Below, piece by piece: positions 29,027 to 38,424 of a stretch of 64,000 nucleotides of DNA (the first letter of the stretch is position 1; each line of letters starts with the position of its first letter). The position numbers and the translations under genes were made by a program. The stretch comes from Giardia intestinalis. Taxonomy: Eukaryota. The notes under the pieces are model-generated. The model did no database searches and was not told where the DNA came from. It worked only from the letters and a program-made list of their open reading frames with translations. The stretch lies in NCBI GenBank assembly GCA_000002435.2, contig CM018791.1; one strand, given 5' to 3'.

Positions 29027-29419
29027 TCAAAGAGATCTATTGTCGAGCTGGCAGCCTCGTTTCTTGCTGGCGTAGGTGCAGTTTTTCTAGTCCAGGCAGT
29101 CCACGCCAAATGCTGCACTGTACGCTGTCCTCTCTGTACTCTTTTTGGATCCAGTACGCAGGAGCAAAAGCCGACTTCTGGCGGCTGTTCTGGATCAAGC
29201 GATCCTAGCCAACGATGTGCAAACTGCACCTGTTGGAAGTCTCGGGTGGGCGACAAGTCAGCTGAGGCCAACTCTCAGCCGGGAATTTCCGTCCAGAAAT
29301 CTGGTCGAGTTGCTCTGAATCTTGCGGCGATAAATCCAGAGCAGGAGCTCCGTCAGGTTGGCGACGACTCTGCTTCGGGAGATGACGCGACTTATATGAT
29401 CTCTCAACCTCCTCTTTAA
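29027..29419 (+). CDS. Candidate small secreted/membrane ORF (131 aa). Weak support.
   Basis: ATG followed by a hydrophobic segment (SIVELAASFLAGVGAVFLVQAVHA) and Cys-rich residues. Lies in the 443-bp gap between the syntaxin start and the RPE 3' end. Could be non-coding. Confidence 0.2.
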   Translation, partial: SKRSIVELAASFLAGVGAVFLVQAVHAKCCTVRCPLCTLFGSSTQEQKPTSGGCSGSSDPSQRCANCTCWKSRVGDKSAEANSQPGISVQKSGRVALNLAAINPEQELRQVGDDSASGDDATYMISQPPL

Positions 29420-30141
29420 GCACGTTTACATGACACCATATGTTTTCTGAGTAGGGTGATGGGAATGCTTCTATCGGACGCCCCGAATATGTACGAGCCT
29501 GCCACGAAGGCGTCTATTCCACAGGAGCATGCATGATCTATCGTCGCATCCGAAATTCCTCCATCCACTTCAATCAGTAAATCGCTTCTCCTCTTTTTCA
29601 GCTGAATCGCCTTCTCAGCGGCCTCTGGGATATACTTCTGACCACCAAAGCCAGGCTCTACAGTCATAAGAAGAACCAGATCTAAGGCCTTTAACAAGTC
29701 GTCGCCAATGACGGAAGCTGGTGTCTTTGGCTTGATGGAAAGGCCTGCCTTGAGTCCGTGTGCCTTTATTTCCTCGACCAATCGAGCGCATGCCGTATTG
29801 ATAGCTTCCAGATCTTCGTCTGGATCTATGTATGGTGAGTTCCTACCAGAACGCACGGAGGGAGCCTCAATATGAAAGGTAAAGGTGGAAGCACCTGCCT
29901 TAGCGGTCGATGAAATCCAAAACCCTGGGTCATTGGTCATAAAGTGACAGTCTAAAAATGCGTTGGGGACGGCAGCATGTAGGGCACTGATGACGGGCGG
30001 GCCAATGGTCAGATTGGGGACAAAGTTTCCATCCATTACATCCACATGTAACCAGTCTGCTCCACAGTTGAGGACCTCCTGAGCCTCCTGTCCAAGCTTG
30101 GAAAAATCAGCTGAGAGGATTGATGGCGCAATCAACGTCAT
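29416..30141 (-). CDS. RPE: Ribulose-phosphate 3-epimerase.
   Basis: MTLIAPSILSADFSKLGQE…DWLHVDVMDGNFVPNLTIGPPV…MTVEPGFGGQKYI…VDGGI are hallmark RPE motifs. Confidence 0.9.
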   Translation of the reverse strand: MTLIAPSILSADFSKLGQEAQEVLNCGADWLHVDVMDGNFVPNLTIGPPVISALHAAVPNAFLDCHFMTNDPGFWISSTAKAGASTFTFHIEAPSVRSGRNSPYIDPDEDLEAINTACARLVEEIKAHGLKAGLSIKPKTPASVIGDDLLKALDLVLLMTVEPGFGGQKYIPEAAEKAIQLKKRRSDLLIEVDGGISDATIDHACSCGIDAFVAGSYIFGASDRSIPITLLRKHMVSCKRA

Positions 30142-30327
30142 TTGTTTTTAGCTATGCGAAGAAAGATTTAGGCTGCTGTGTAAATATTCACTCTAGTTAT
30201 TTTTCTTATGCACTGCCTACACCTTAGCTTTACTATGGCTGTTTACTGTGACTGTTTACTTAAGGCACGGTATACTCTGCAAGGAACTCCGGTGGTGCAG
30301 GATTTGCTAAATAAGATTCATCAGGGG

Positions 30328-30723
30328 CTACAAGCCACTGCAATCACGAATCTCTGCATCCTTACTCGAGACTCGAGGGTTGCGCCCCGGCTGGGAAGCG
30401 CGGGCCTCACGGCGGGCGGCGGGCTGCTCTGCGCACGCTCCCCTGCGGAGGCGGTGGCCGGGGGCGCACCGGTGGCAGTACTCCGGGACGGCGCAGACCG
30501 CGCAGTGCTCGACGGCGCAGGGCCCGGGGGTGCACGCCCGCCCGCCGTCTGCAGGGACCAGCTCGCCCTGGCAGCGCAGGCAGGCGGCGCCCGCGCACCG
30601 CTCGCAGCCGGGGACCGTCACCCCGCAGGGCAGGGCCGCGAGGAGGCGGAGGAGGCGTCCGGGCATCGGCGTGTTTTCGGCCAAAAATCTGGCGATGTCT
30701 ACGGCGCCCGCGACCTGGGACAC
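30328..30723 (-). CDS. Small GC-rich ORF encoding a Cys-rich (CXXC/furin-like) peptide with a possible signal peptide (start may be the second Met, MPGRLLRLLAALP). Coding frame uncertain.
   Basis: Lies in a roughly 78% GC island. Of the six frames, this one has GC1>GC2 with GC3 about 90% and a protein-like Cys pattern (CERCAGAACLRCQ…CAVEHCAVCAVPEYCHRCAPGH). The competing open frames encode Arg/Pro/Gly-rich strings. Confidence 0.3.
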   Translation of the reverse strand: MSQVAGAVDIARFLAENTPMPGRLLRLLAALPCGVTVPGCERCAGAACLRCQGELVPADGGRACTPGPCAVEHCAVCAVPEYCHRCAPGHRLRRGACAEQPAARREARASQPGRNPRVSSKDAEIRDCSGL

Positions 30724-31003
30724 GCACTGGGCGCGCCACTGGCGCCTGGCCTGGGACTACGTCCTCGGGGCCGCCGTGGCAGGGCTCCTCCTGGCGTGCG
30801 GGGCGCGCTCCCCGGGCCAGGCAGGGGACCCGGACCCCCGGCACAGCCCCCGGCGCCGCAGCTCCTTCGAGGGCCGGGCTCCCCCGCGCCGGCGGGAGAC
30901 GAGCGACCCCGACGTCGACTGCTCCGACTAGCCCGGGGCACGCGAATCCCATAAAGTGAACGTCAACGCTTTTCCGGCACAATCACCGGGTAGTTTATTG
31001 ATG

Positions 31004-31017
31004 GAGAAAAATAAATG
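31004..31017 (+). promoter_or_regulatory. AT-rich initiator GAGAAAAATAAATG (ATG included). Identical 14-mer at 32673-32686 and 49834-49847.
   Basis: Exact 14-nt identity directly at the start codon of three Cys-rich membrane-protein genes. Confidence 0.4.
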
Positions 31018-31761
31018 TGCTGCTGCGACGAGGACATCATCGCCCTCATCTGCGTGGGCATCCCGATGATCGCGTACGCGGTGGTAGTCGGCTTTCCGGG
31101 GAGAGACCCCAGCAAGGTTGGAGCGGCATTGAAAGAGTGTCTCAGTAACAAAAATGGTAAGAATCTCCTAGCCTGCATCAGTGAGAAGGGGGATAACTAC
31201 GGCGGCCTCTTCCTCTTCATAATGATTGTGGCCGTGATCTGCATCATCTACAGCATCGTCGTCCAGATCCTCAAGTGCGTCCTCTGCTGCTGCAGCTGCT
31301 GCTGCTGCGGGTGCTGCGGGTGCCTCGACTGCTTCCTCAAGTACGCGTTCCGCATCGGGGTCGGAGTCGGGTACCCCTCGCTCGCGGACTTCCTCACGTA
31401 CCTGATCACCTCCGTGCTGGCGAAGAACGGGAACGGTGGTAATACGTCGTTCAGCAACGCCGTGGGCGGCTACAGCGGGCTGTCGATGGTCTCCCTCGCG
31501 GCCGGCTGGGCCTTCACCGTGGTCATCGGCTCGTTCTTCATCCACAAGGACAGCTGCGGGCTGAAGTTCCTCGGGCTCATTCTGGGCTGCATCGTCGCCT
31601 TCGTCGTCATCGCGGCCATCGTCCCGGCGGGCCCCCGCGGCCTCCTTGAGGGCCCCTCCAACAAGTGGGCGGGCGTGGTCCTCGGGCTCGTCGACGTGGT
31701 AGTCTTCACAGCCATGTACGCCGCGGCGCTCTGCTGCCTGGGCGGCGGGTGCTGCAAGTAA
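31015..31761 (+). CDS. Polycysteine multi-pass membrane protein, paralog 1 (248 aa; MCCC N-terminus, CCCSCCCCGCCGC cluster after TM2, CCLGGGCCK C-terminus).
   Basis: Four to six predicted TM helices. Juxtamembrane Cys runs. Very GC3-rich codon usage. Initiator gagaaaaataaATG. Confidence 0.75.
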   Translation: MCCCDEDIIALICVGIPMIAYAVVVGFPGRDPSKVGAALKECLSNKNGKNLLACISEKGDNYGGLFLFIMIVAVICIIYSIVVQILKCVLCCCSCCCCGCCGCLDCFLKYAFRIGVGVGYPSLADFLTYLITSVLAKNGNGGNTSFSNAVGGYSGLSMVSLAAGWAFTVVIGSFFIHKDSCGLKFLGLILGCIVAFVVIAAIVPAGPRGLLEGPSNKWAGVVLGLVDVVVFTAMYAAALCCLGGGCCK

Positions 31762-31773
31762 ACGGCGCCCGGC

Positions 31774-32247
31774 CTACTGCTCGGTCTCCTCGTAGATCGT
31801 GATCTCGGAGCAGTCTGCGCACCGGAGCCCGCTGTCCTCCGAGACGGGGACCTGGAAGATCACCCTGCAGAAGCGCATGAACCGGTTTGCGTACGCGTCG
31901 CTCGGGACCGCGGAGATCCCGTCCTTGTCTGCGCACAGCCCCTTCGCCCTGCGCTCGACGTGCTTGATGCTCCTGAACTCGGTGAGGAAGTCGACGACGC
32001 CCATGTGGAGGACCCGGTAGTAGAGGGCCGACCCCCGCAGCGTGGGCCCCAGGGCGCAGGCGGGGGAGAACGCGTAGAGCCCGCCCTCCTCGCTGTGGAA
32101 GATGTCGCTGCTCTGGATGGCCGCCTCGAACGTGAAGCGGCGCCGGAAGACCTCCCGGAGGTACTCGTCGGGGGGCAGCGCGGCGAGGAACGCGGACGTC
32201 CCCCGGCTCCCCCCGGCCGCGATGCTGTGGCCCACCGGGGGCAGCAT
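31774..32247 (-). CDS. Hypothetical protein (157 aa) with extremely high GC3 codon usage.
   Basis: Of the frames in this GC-rich stretch, only this one gives a compositionally normal protein (…YLREVFRRRFTFEAAIQSSDIFHSEEGGLYAF…). GC3 is about 95%. The alternatives are Arg/Pro/Gly junk. Confidence 0.5.
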   Translation of the reverse strand: MLPPVGHSIAAGGSRGTSAFLAALPPDEYLREVFRRRFTFEAAIQSSDIFHSEEGGLYAFSPACALGPTLRGSALYYRVLHMGVVDFLTEFRSIKHVERRAKGLCADKDGISAVPSDAYANRFMRFCRVIFQVPVSEDSGLRCADCSEITIYEETEQ

Positions 32248-32683
32248 GTCCGAGACGTCCCGCGTGCTGAGGATGACTCTTCACCGATATTCCTTAGTAA
32301 GCTTAGTCAATGGTAAGTATAACGTCTTGTAGACGACGAGTGACAGTAATTCACCGTGTTTTCCCAGGGCCTCTAAACTAAGAGAGCCTGACAACAAAGT
32401 GCTCAAATTGCGGTTCAAGGCACGCATTATGAAGACATTGGCATCGCCGCTTTTTTAGGTTTCTGCGCCGGCCTACTAGGCAGTCAAAATAGTACAAAAA
32501 TTTCCAAATTGATGTTTAAACAATTTTAGATGTGCAAAGACTTTCATCGACCTCTTACTGGTTGACAGCGAATAGCTGTTTACACACAGAAATTCCGTTA
32601 TTGGTTTTCTTCGATAAATAAATTTCAAGAATCTTCGATTGCGCTGAATAAGTCAATGTTCCTTCAATCGTTGAGAAAAATAA

Positions 32684-33478
32684 ATGTGCTGTGATGAGGA
32701 TGTCATTGCCCTCATCTGCGTGGGTGTCCCGATGGTTGTGTATGCCCTGATTGTAGGGTTCCAGAAAAGGAACCCAGCTGCTGTTGGTCAAGCGCTAAAG
32801 ACTTGTTTTAATGACAACAAATCTATATGGAAAAAAGACCCTTTGAAGTGCCTTGCTGGTACTAAATATGGTGGCTTGTTTCTCTTCATAATGATCGTGG
32901 CCGTGATCTGCATCATTTACGGGATTGTTGTTCAGATACTCAAATGTATTTTGTGTTGCTGTAATTGTTGTTGCGGGTGCTGCGGGTGCCTCGACTGCTT
33001 CCTCAAGTACGCGTTCCGCATCGGGGTCGGCGTCGGGTACCCCTCTTTGATGGATTTTCTTACATATTTGATCTCTGCTTCGGTAGCGAAGAATAACAAC
33101 TGGGTAGACAACAATCTCTCCAAGAGAGGCGCATTCAACAATGCAGTGGGAGGTTACAGTGGCATATCAATGCTATCTCTTGCGGCCGGTTGGGTCTTCA
33201 CTGTGGTCATCGGCTCATTTTTCATCCAGAAAGACAGCTGCGGCCTGAAATTCTTAGGGCTTATTCTAGGTTGTATCGTCGCCTTCGTCATTATCGCAGC
33301 TGTTGTCCCAGCAGATCCTCGTAATTTATACTCTGGTAAAGCCTTTAACAATCAGCTTTTCATTAGCAAGGAAGCCAGGTGGGGCGGCGTTCTCCTCGGC
33401 TTCATCAATGTAGGAGTTTTCACAGGCATGTATGCTGCTGCCCTGTGTTGCTTGAACGGCTGCTGCTGTTGCAAGTAA
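32684..33478 (+). CDS. Polycysteine multi-pass membrane protein, paralog 2 (264 aa).
   Basis: Roughly three-quarters amino-acid identity with 31015..31761 by eye. Same MCC…, CCCNCCCGCCGC and …CCLNGCCCCK features. Ordinary AT-moderate codon usage, except for short stretches identical to paralog 1. Confidence 0.8.
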   Translation: MCCDEDVIALICVGVPMVVYALIVGFQKRNPAAVGQALKTCFNDNKSIWKKDPLKCLAGTKYGGLFLFIMIVAVICIIYGIVVQILKCILCCCNCCCGCCGCLDCFLKYAFRIGVGVGYPSLMDFLTYLISASVAKNNNWVDNNLSKRGAFNNAVGGYSGISMLSLAAGWVFTVVIGSFFIQKDSCGLKFLGLILGCIVAFVIIAAVVPADPRNLYSGKAFNNQLFISKEARWGGVLLGFINVGVFTGMYAAALCCLNGCCCCK

Positions 33479-37440: not shown

Positions 37441-38424
37441 ATGCCGTTCAAGCAGACCCGCCACTTGCTCACTATCTCTGCCCTCTGCCCCAAGGAGCTT
37501 GCGTACCTTATCGACCGTGCGCTCGACATGAAGAAGAACCCCGCGAAGTACACTGCGCGTGCGGCCAACAAGACCCTGCTCGCCTTCTTCGCCAAGCCGT
37601 CACTCCGCACACGCGTCTCCTTGGAGACAGCCATGACGCGCCTTGGCGGGCACGCGATCTACTACGAGCTCGGCGCAAACTCCAACGTTGGCGGCAAGGA
37701 GACCGTCCAGGACACCGCTGAGGTCTTCTCGCGCATGGTGGACATCTGCACAGCCCGCCTGGCCACCAAGGAGATGATGAGGGAGATGGCCCAGCACGCT
37801 TCTGTGCCCTGCATCAACGCCCTTGACGACTTCGGCCACCCGCTCCAGATGGTCTGCGACTTCATGACCATCAAGGAGAAGTTCACGGCGGCAGGCGAGT
37901 TCTCCAACGGCTTCAAGGGCATAAAGTTTGCATACTGCGGGGACTCCATGAACAACGTCACATACGACCTCATGCGTGGCTGCGCCCTGCTTGGCATGGA
38001 GTGCCACGTTTGCTGCCCTGACCACAAGGACTTCAAGCCCATCAAGGAAGTCATCGATGAGTGCGAGGAGATCATCGCAAAGCACGGCACCGGCGGCTCC
38101 ATTAAAATCTTCCATGACTGCAAGAAGGGGTGCGAGGGCGTCGACGTCGTCTACACAGACTCGTGGATGAGCTACCACATCACCAAGGAGCAGAAGGAGG
38201 CCCGCCTCAAGGTTCTCACGCCGTTCCAGGTCGACGATGCCGTCATGGCCGTCACCTCCAAGCGCAGCATCTTCATGAACTGCCTTCCAGCGACCCGCGG
38301 TGAGGAGCAGACGGCGTCTGTCATTGACGGGCCCAAGTCCGTCTGCTACGACGAGGCCGGGAATCGCCTGCACTCGGCTATGGCGGTCCTCGACTTCTTC
38401 TTGCATGACTGCAAGATGGAGTGA
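37441..38424 (+). CDS. OCT: Ornithine carbamoyltransferase (arginine dihydrolase pathway).
   Basis: Carbamoyl-phosphate site SLRTRVS, HPLQ motif, HCLPA motif. About 327 aa. Very high GC3 codon usage, consistent with high expression. AGTGAAT follows 20 nt after the stop. Confidence 0.9.
   Translation: MPFKQTRHLLTISALCPKELAYLIDRALDMKKNPAKYTARAANKTLLAFFAKPSLRTRVSLETAMTRLGGHAIYYELGANSNVGGKETVQDTAEVFSRMVDICTARLATKEMMREMAQHASVPCINALDDFGHPLQMVCDFMTIKEKFTAAGEFSNGFKGIKFAYCGDSMNNVTYDLMRGCALLGMECHVCCPDHKDFKPIKEVIDECEEIIAKHGTGGSIKIFHDCKKGCEGVDVVYTDSWMSYHITKEQKEARLKVLTPFQVDDAVMAVTSKRSIFMNCLPATRGEEQTASVIDGPKSVCYDEAGNRLHSAMAVLDFFLHDCKME

Follow-up and report, generated by a model that had tools for sequence, protein, structure and literature searches.

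We analysed a 64,000-nucleotide stretch of the genome of Giardia intestinalis WB (ATCC 50803; GenBank assembly GCA_000002435.2, contig CM018791.1), referred to below as the window, which contains a GC-rich island encoding a Cys-rich protein, a small membrane protein, a polycysteine transmembrane protein, and part of the kinase PIP5K. The island is almost certainly a duplicated segment, one of two dispersed copies, and the edges of its GC enrichment coincide with the breakpoints of the duplication, at which the GC content of third codon positions (GC3) changes abruptly within single genes. The cause of the GC richness, with a probability that we put at roughly 0.6, is concerted evolution of the two copies with GC-biased gene conversion (gBGC) between them. 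Annotation of the window was taken from exact-sequence matches, and the coordinates of the features are collected in Table 1.

Composition of the island

The GC content of positions 30,375-32,275 is 68%, compared with 50.7% for the window, and the flanks adjoining the island have only 0.39-0.41. When the tandem repeat at 5-9 kb of the window was set aside, the maximal-scoring GC-rich segment extended from 30,367 or 30,374 to 32,272 at all thresholds tried, so that the limits of 30,370-32,290 given in an initial annotation of this DNA were accurate. The GC values reported there were likewise borne out by sliding-window analysis: 78% GC was found in 30,368-30,950, and windows of 200 bp gave 0.74-0.82 in 30,400-30,950 and 0.62-0.72 in 31,250-32,300. 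The dip between these two blocks (30,951-31,250) is genuine, as the intergenic part (30,951-31,014) has 0.39 GC and the gene that follows, polycysteine paralogue 1, has 0.54 GC and no enrichment in its first ~79 codons.

Most of the GC excess of the island comes from a single codon position, with a GC content of 0.9-1.0. One codon phase reaches 0.92-1.0 (phase 0 in 30,450-30,900 and 31,800-32,250, and phase 2 in 31,200-31,800), in agreement with the wobble class of about 90-95% GC that had been proposed earlier. By open reading frame (ORF), GC3 was 0.98 in a 157-aa ORF on the minus strand, 0.95 in a 78-aa ORF, 0.86 in a Cys-rich ORF counted from its ATG, and 0.89 in polycysteine paralogue 1. 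The neighboring paralogue 2, which lies outside the island, has 0.56, and the large difference between these two genes that was noted at the outset is thus real. In the left block, codon positions 1 and 2 are enriched too (~0.7-0.8 GC in the small ORFs). At 4-fold sites of the PIP5K fragment, G (0.48) and C (0.49) are equally frequent and T is absent; the ornithine carbamoyltransferase (OCT) gene of the same window prefers C (0.57) to G (0.21), and the two genes differ significantly (Fisher p = 0.002).

The other long ORFs of the window have GC3 values of 0.41-0.68, with two exceptions, OCT (0.87) and the VSP tandem-repeat gene at 5,167-9,630 (0.76). The array in the VSP gene is the only other tract of the window that exceeds 60% GC over more than ~1 kb, and it is a homogenised repeat as well. 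This gene (plus strand; Pfam VSP, E 3.5e-62) contains at 5,284-9,496 a run of 35.1 perfect 120-bp units with 100% matches, no indels, and 65% GC. OCT (37,441-38,424, plus strand) has ordinary codon positions 1 and 2 and no repeat; its bias looks like that of the expression type, which makes it a counter-example to the notion that all high GC3 reflects repeats.

A dispersed duplication with breakpoints at the edges of the island

Clustering at an identity of at least 90% groups polycysteine paralogue 1 with KAE8303017.1 and the 157-aa ORF with KAE8303018.1, two proteins that are encoded on the same 1,973,847-bp WB contig at a distance of 39 accession numbers (approximately 39 annotated genes) from the island. 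The first of these (P0016), with 98.4% identity to paralogue 1 by tblastn, adjoins the second, a full-length PIP5K. Because the polycysteine gene and the PIP5K fragment both match neighboring genes at the second site, the right part of the island is a partial copy of a polycysteine and PIP5K locus. We refer to the island as copy 1 and to the other locus as copy 2; both are annotated separately on the long-read chromosome contig.

The junctions of copy 2 were read from two Logan contigs, L013 and L019, which were assembled from short reads of other isolates and are not WB copy-2 DNA. L013 contains a near-complete PIP5K of the copy-2 type and matches the window at 30,449-32,275 with 99.4% identity over 1,836 bp. 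As this homology reaches 30,449, the left GC block also belongs to the repeat. On the right, the switch in L013 from unique 5' sequence of PIP5K to the repeat is at window position 32,275, and base-by-base reading placed the breakpoint at 32,275-32,280. The left junction of copy 2 was found in L019, which matches the window from 30,375/30,422 to 31,166 (99.6% over 745 bp) and whose left flank (147 bp, 0.48 GC) is unrelated to the window. The compositional island and the duplicated segment therefore agree within a few bases at either end, and a GC step is present at the homology edge at all four junctions, two per copy. This dispersed duplication, with breakpoints that coincide with the GC edges, had been missed in the initial annotation.

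Identical junctions were recovered independently in at least 13 sequencing runs. All Logan contigs that carry the ribulose-phosphate 3-epimerase (RPE) gene to the left of the island end at ~30,451-30,469, and in a 98%-identical isolate the MEGAHIT k141 contigs end at 31,701 and begin again (L014) at 32,135, which equals 32,275 - 140. The short-read assemblies of many isolates thus break inside the island because of the repeat itself. Searches with PIP5K by tblastn detected no remnant in the divergent contigs L016, L017, L018, and L020, and two scans of JGI metagenomes, with PIP5K and with a polycysteine alignment, returned no Giardia DNA.

The genes of copy 2 are intact. In copy 1, the small transmembrane (TM) gene and the polycysteine gene are complete, the Cys-rich gene is truncated to its 5' 82-99 codons, and only the final third of PIP5K is present. 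The 157-aa ORF (31,774-32,247; old GL50803_112368) begins at an internal Met of PIP5K and agrees at every residue with the C-terminus of the WB PIP5K KAE8303018.1. It matches Pfam PIP5K (PF01504) with 46.6 bits (cutoff 27; E 3.4e-12) at profile positions 234-286 of 288 only, and the domain occupies residues 118-477 in the full 506-aa protein. A tblastn search with PIP5K (P0005) showed that the window encodes only residues 339-506, at 32,280-31,777 with 99.4% identity. The YDLKGS and IDYSLL stretches of the full kinase precede residue 339, and hence are not in the fragment, which is without ~80% of the kinase domain. Judged by its sequence, the 157-aa ORF is a gene fragment, a PIP5K relic, and would not be a functional kinase. 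The same C-terminus is 94% identical to that of the assemblage E orthologue and is contiguous with its own N-terminus in copy 2. By exact-sequence look-up, the ORF belongs to a 12-member cluster; a homologous-protein search returned nothing for this ORF or for the Cys-rich ORF, which we take as a limit of that search. The preference for this minus-strand frame in the initial annotation is supported by the Pfam match and the identity to the kinase C-terminus, and what had escaped notice is that the ORF is the 3' end of a truncated gene.

GC3 steps within single genes

The central result was obtained from genes that span a breakpoint, as measured in the copy-2-type contigs L013 (PIP5K) and L019 (Cys-rich gene). 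In PIP5K, G or C occupies the third position in 192 of the 336 codons outside the duplication (57%; codons 1-336) and in 165 of the last 168, which lie inside (98%; Fisher 5e-27). When only the 60 codons on either side of the breakpoint were compared, the counts were 39/60 outside and 60/60 inside (Fisher 1e-7). The Cys-rich gene has a GC3 of 0.45 in the 49 codons outside and 0.92 in the 88 codons inside. A corresponding step is seen in the window, where the Cys-rich ORF is inside the duplication from 30,375 to its ATG at 30,666 (~97 codons including an insertion) with a GC3 of 0.91, and its last ~15 codons are unique flank with a GC3 of 0.50. Since the ORF remains open past the breakpoint in L019, where it encodes at least 137 aa, the window copy is 3'-truncated and ends in unique flank. 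GC enrichment is confined to the duplicated tract.

Within polycysteine paralogue 1, the N-terminal loop, which is variable, has a GC3 of 0.57-0.7, and the codons from about 61 on have 0.9-1.0. The same pattern of a low-GC3 loop and a conserved core at 0.93-1.0 is repeated in the divergent paralogues of L016 and L017. On a fine scale, GC3 tracks the long-term homology among paralogues.

Exchange between the copies and the proposed mechanism

Several observations indicate that the duplicates have not evolved independently. Among isolates, sites 30,380, 30,795, 30,843, and 31,644 vary in both types of locus, and the residue variants F383S and G489E are found in truncated and full-length PIP5K alike. 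The isolates WB (AI) and DHA2 (AII) each carry a truncated and a full copy; LLEGPS is present in both WB polycysteine paralogues and LLDNPS in both DHA2 paralogues, whereas an adjacent indel (-T vs DK) tracks orthology and not paralogy. As lineage-specific residues are shared by paralogues while the indel follows orthology, the duplication dates from the AI/AII split or earlier and the copies have been converted since. These sequence patterns argue strongly that the two loci exchange sequence. In addition, the GC3-saturated coding parts contain only 4 differences in 592 bp between isolates, compared with ~2% in the flanks, which implies that some force is still acting.

Under the mechanism that we propose, the two copies would repeatedly repair from each other by non-reciprocal (ectopic) gene conversion, the polycysteine core would exchange with further paralogues as well, and heteroduplex mismatches would be resolved preferentially to G:C. 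Over time, weakly constrained sites in the homologous tract would be driven to G or C, with wobble positions reaching 0.9-1.0, and in the poorly constrained small ORFs codon positions 1 and 2 would also rise, to ~0.7-0.8. Sequence just beyond the tract would stay at the genomic 45-57%, and strongly constrained AT-rich promoter DNA within it would resist. Constraint on the promoter may oppose GC enrichment in this way in the intergenic segment upstream of the polycysteine gene (30,932-31,014), and a GC bias of conversion and repair is probably the cause of the enrichment elsewhere in the tract. Concerted evolution with gBGC explains the coincidence of edges and breakpoints, the intragenic steps, and the saturation of an apparently non-functional kinase fragment, as well as the raised codon positions 1 and 2 in the small ORFs and the fine-scale GC3 pattern of the polycysteine gene. 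GC-biased gene conversion was one of four explanations offered with reservations in the initial annotation, and it is the one favored by the edges at breakpoints, the GC3 steps within genes, and the exchange between copies.

Several points weigh against this interpretation. It requires gBGC on two ectopic copies to be far stronger than that to which allelic homogenisation exposes the remaining genome, and the GC3 comparison of PIP5K covers only genomes that carry the duplicate. GC richness could also be the cause and not the effect, by making DNA easier to convert, as was assumed in PMC12669663. Over ~100 codons outside the breakpoint, PIP5K already has a GC3 of 0.6-0.8. Paralogues 1 and 2 have 87 synonymous differences, of which 67 pair G/C in paralogue 1 with A/T in paralogue 2 and 7 are the reverse, but these differences are unpolarised. 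The junctions in L013 and L019 could be chimeric across near-identical repeats; L013 has a 248-aa polycysteine variant of the copy-1 type beside a full-length PIP5K, and the shared polymorphisms may in part reflect assembly mixing. Finally, the DHA2 protein P0037 was assumed to be the copy-2 orthologue.

Alternative explanations

We consider it unlikely that the segment was already GC-rich, for example because of a hotspot of allelic recombination or a mutation bias of the region, and was then copied as a unit, the copies being alike by recency or purifying forces. The identity of 99.4-99.6% between copies, taken alone, fits recency, and the somewhat raised GC3 of PIP5K beyond the breakpoint is also in its favor. 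In contig L020, from a divergent assemblage, the pair of Cys-rich and TM genes is moderately GC-rich (0.63-0.66), which points in the same direction. However, both breakpoints must then have hit within ~10 bp of preexisting composition steps in two different genes. The event is also not recent, because WB and DHA2 both have the two copies, yet the paralogues share lineage-specific residues, and the saturated parts vary less among isolates than do the flanks.

Translational selection, by which very highly expressed island genes would have acquired preferred G/C-ending codons, is improbable even though expression-linked GC3 bias is real in Giardia (CAI vs GC3s r = 0.90, CAI being the codon adaptation index; PMC8393687). 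Such selection cannot switch on at codon 339 of PIP5K within one mRNA or switch off past codon ~88 of the Cys-rich gene, and a GC3 of 0.98 is found in a kinase fragment that has lost most of its domain. High expression is conceivable for the intact polycysteine gene. Its paralogue 2 encodes the same conserved core and has a GC3 of 0.56. OCT demonstrates that a GC3 of 0.87 can occur in this window with no repeat; its 4-fold sites nevertheless differ from those of the island, where G and C are balanced, and the left block is enriched at codon positions 1 and 2 too. The very high-expression codon selection suggested in the initial annotation does not fit the GC3 steps inside single genes, and neither does the foreign insertion that it also named.

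A foreign insertion (by horizontal transfer or a mobile element) or an assembly artefact (a collapsed or chimeric repeat) is very improbable: the sharp compositional edges and the breaks of many short-read assemblies within the island would be compatible with it, but all ORFs are native Giardia genes or fragments, the polycysteine family is Giardia-specific, the junctions recur in independent runs and the copies are annotated separately on a long-read contig, there is no Rfam match, nothing in Pfam points to a transposase or other mobile-element gene, and no inverted repeats were found. The earlier idea of a collapsed repeat was therefore right about the repeat and wrong about the collapse.

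Features of the island and their annotation

Table 1. Features in and around the GC-rich island (window coordinates).
Feature	Position	Strand	Properties
Ribulose-phosphate 3-epimerase (RPE)	29,416-30,141	-	From annotation
Hypothetical protein GL50803_00101423	30,208-30,954	+	KAE8302977.1; annotated, 248 aa
Cys-rich ORF	30,328-30,666	-	112 aa from ATG at 30,666; hydrophobic N-terminus, then CXXC/furin-like Cys-rich domain
Duplicated segment (GC-rich island)	30,375-32,280		Copy 1 of a two-copy dispersed repeat; ~1.9 kb, 68% GC
In-frame insertion relative to second copy	30,394-30,426		33 bp; flanked by GGCTG direct repeat; window compared with L019
Head-to-head spacer between small ORFs	30,667-30,694		28 bp; AT-rich patches gttttc / caaaaatc
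78-aa single-pass membrane ORF (old GL50803_34968)	30,695-30,931	+	Exact match to XP_001709971.1
AT-rich intergenic segment upstream of polycysteine gene	30,932-31,014		39% GC; inside duplication, not GC-enriched
Polycysteine transmembrane protein, paralogue 1	31,015-31,761	+	KAE8302978.1; 248 aa; GC3 0.89
Truncated PIP5K 3' fragment	31,774-32,280	-	Codons 339-506 of 506; GC3 0.98
Polycysteine paralogue 2	32,684-33,478	+	KAE8302979.1; outside duplication; GC3 0.56; internal control

The left block of the island contains two conserved small genes, the Cys-rich ORF on the minus strand and the 78-aa ORF on the plus strand, both of which are lacking from the current annotation. The Cys-rich ORF has a homologue (P0056) encoded on L020 that is 56% identical (HMMER, E 4.9e-17) and keeps the aligned cysteines save one, and a tblastn search with the ORF against L020 gave 5e-22. 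Its product is predicted to be of the secreted type. More distant matches are furin-like-repeat proteins, which, together with the CXXC spacing, amount to a resemblance only; in Pfam, Furin-like_2 scored 13.7 bits (cutoff 28) and VSP did not match. A TM segment and a CRGKA tail are absent from both the 112-aa ORF and P0056. The interval 30,387-30,661 has zero substitutions relative to an isolate that is 2% diverged elsewhere.

The 78-aa ORF also has a homologue in L020 (tblastn E 4.5e-16), with which it shares the N-terminus TWDTHWAR.WRLAWDY, the TM segment, and the C-terminal RRRETSDPDVDxSD; no match to it was found in Pfam. The head-to-head order of the two small ORFs is kept in L020, and the spacer between them may be a bidirectional initiator region. 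Of the 8 differences between isolates in 30,700-30,930, 7 change the first or second codon position of the 78-aa ORF, in its variable middle, and the differences are uninformative for the choice of frame. The plus-strand frame 30,380-30,931 was considered as the 3' end of a longer gene, an idea that we abandoned because its conservation in L020 is limited to the final 78 codons and the conserved domain in the rest of it is the Cys-rich one on the minus strand.

The annotated protein GL50803_00101423, which overlaps both small ORFs, is probably a spurious frame. Its GC1 (GC content at first codon positions; 0.82) exceeds its GC3 (0.67), which is the signature of a wrong frame, and the equivalent frame in L020 has stops; Pfam gave no match to it. 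The 78-aa and 157-aa ORFs are found in the old annotation only and are missing among the consecutive current accessions KAE8302976-979. The minus-strand Cys-rich frame favored in the initial annotation is supported by its homologue, and the minus-strand frames proposed there can be kept; the second conserved small ORF, on the plus strand in the right half of the first GC block, had been overlooked. No Rfam match was found over 30,000-32,700 at E <= 1. In the intergenic region between RPE and the island, WB and the 98%-identical isolate differ by a 13-bp indel (30,239-30,251) that lies inside the annotated 248-aa ORF.

Both polycysteine genes of the window are annotated as transmembrane domain-containing protein, and no Pfam match was found for the polycysteine proteins. 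The core CCC.CCCCGCCGCLDCFLKYAFRIGVGVGYPSL of these proteins is invariant in every Giardia lineage sampled. The N-terminal loop, by contrast, is variable and of low GC3 in all paralogues, and in paralogue 1 it contains a dense patch (31,141-31,165) of ~17 positions at which WB differs from the 98%-identical isolate. Paralogues of the polycysteine-1 type with 78-82% identity occur in two contigs from human gut metagenomes, L016 (480-2040; ERZ4567601) and L017 (771-2330; ERZ4567563), in each case beside a VSP gene and followed by ~800 bp of 64-65% GC with no clear frame and equal GC at the three phases. A Giardia-like contig of 37.6% GC, L018 (430-1161; ERR3333381), encodes a homologue that is 64% identical with a GC3 of 0.31, in a different neighborhood of ankyrin proteins, an Fe-hydrogenase, and an MFS transporter.

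Comparison with known systems

The biased gene conversion hypothesis (Galtier et al. 2001 Genetics 159:907) and the GC enrichment of gene-converted duplicates, which is established for mammalian histone and Hsp70 genes, yeast, and Arabidopsis (Galtier 2003 Trends Genet 19:65; Benovoy et al. 2005 Mol Biol Evol 22:1865), are taken here as they are presented in PMC4316631. The island resembles those converted duplicates in that near-identical paralogues have a GC3 well above that of non-converted paralogues and the genome, with enrichment limited to the converted region. It differs from them in that the dispersed copies number just two, the genes at either end are truncated, and the GC3 steps are resolved to the base pair within single ORFs. 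The saturation of GC3 is also almost complete (98-100%), and the direction of substitution here is unpolarised. Giardia is a tetraploid, binucleate diplomonad, and conversions would be mitotic or ectopic and not meiotic.

Gene conversion within this species has been reported between lineages AI and AII (PMC12669663, Nat Commun 2025). The events have a median tract of 3.3 kb and involve 89 genes with a median GC of 0.541 vs 0.488, and conserved regions of multi-copy genes were proposed as substrates. The island is like these tracts in species, shortness, and GC-enriched genes; paralogue-to-paralogue conversion is not described in that paper as a cause of GC3 saturation. The ribosomal DNA (rDNA) of Giardia has ~75% GC, for which gBGC has been suggested as the cause (PMC10123126, citing Escobar et al. 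2011). Like the rDNA, the island is multi-copy, homogenised, and of extreme GC in a genome of ~49% GC. Unlike that tandem, subtelomeric array of non-coding RNA genes, the island is an internal two-copy segment that encodes protein and has no Rfam match. The expression-linked bias of Giardia genes (PMC8393687), as in OCT, is similar to that of the polycysteine gene, with a GC3 near 0.9 and ordinary codon positions 1 and 2. The bias in the island, however, follows the tract and not whole genes, extends to a truncated fragment, and shows G ~ C and not C >> G at 4-fold sites.

Meaning for Giardia genome evolution

The locus is an unusually clean Giardia example of a phenomenon known in other eukaryotes, in a WB genome of which 6.9% is duplicated (PMC7000408). 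It accounts for a compositional anomaly without foreign DNA, and the repeat explains why the short-read assemblies of many isolates break here. Two annotation problems are flagged as well: GL50803_00101423, with its probable wrong frame, and the old GL50803_112368, the truncated PIP5K relic.

As one reading frame passes from 57% to 98% GC3 across a breakpoint, the locus offers a natural experiment for gBGC in an organism whose recombination biology is contested. The AI lineage is reported to be asexual (PMC12669663). We propose, tentatively and at less than even odds, that ectopic or mitotic gene conversion in this lineage is very strongly GC-biased, with saturation that toggles at breakpoints within ORFs. 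Such a bias provides a testable alternative to expression as the cause of extreme-GC3 Giardia genes. If it is true and general, then much of the range of GC3 in Giardia (26-99%), the 75% GC of the rDNA, and the GC-rich VSP repeats would mark conversion and not expression, and duplication boundaries would be a genome-wide ruler for conversion and its bias that requires no crosses.

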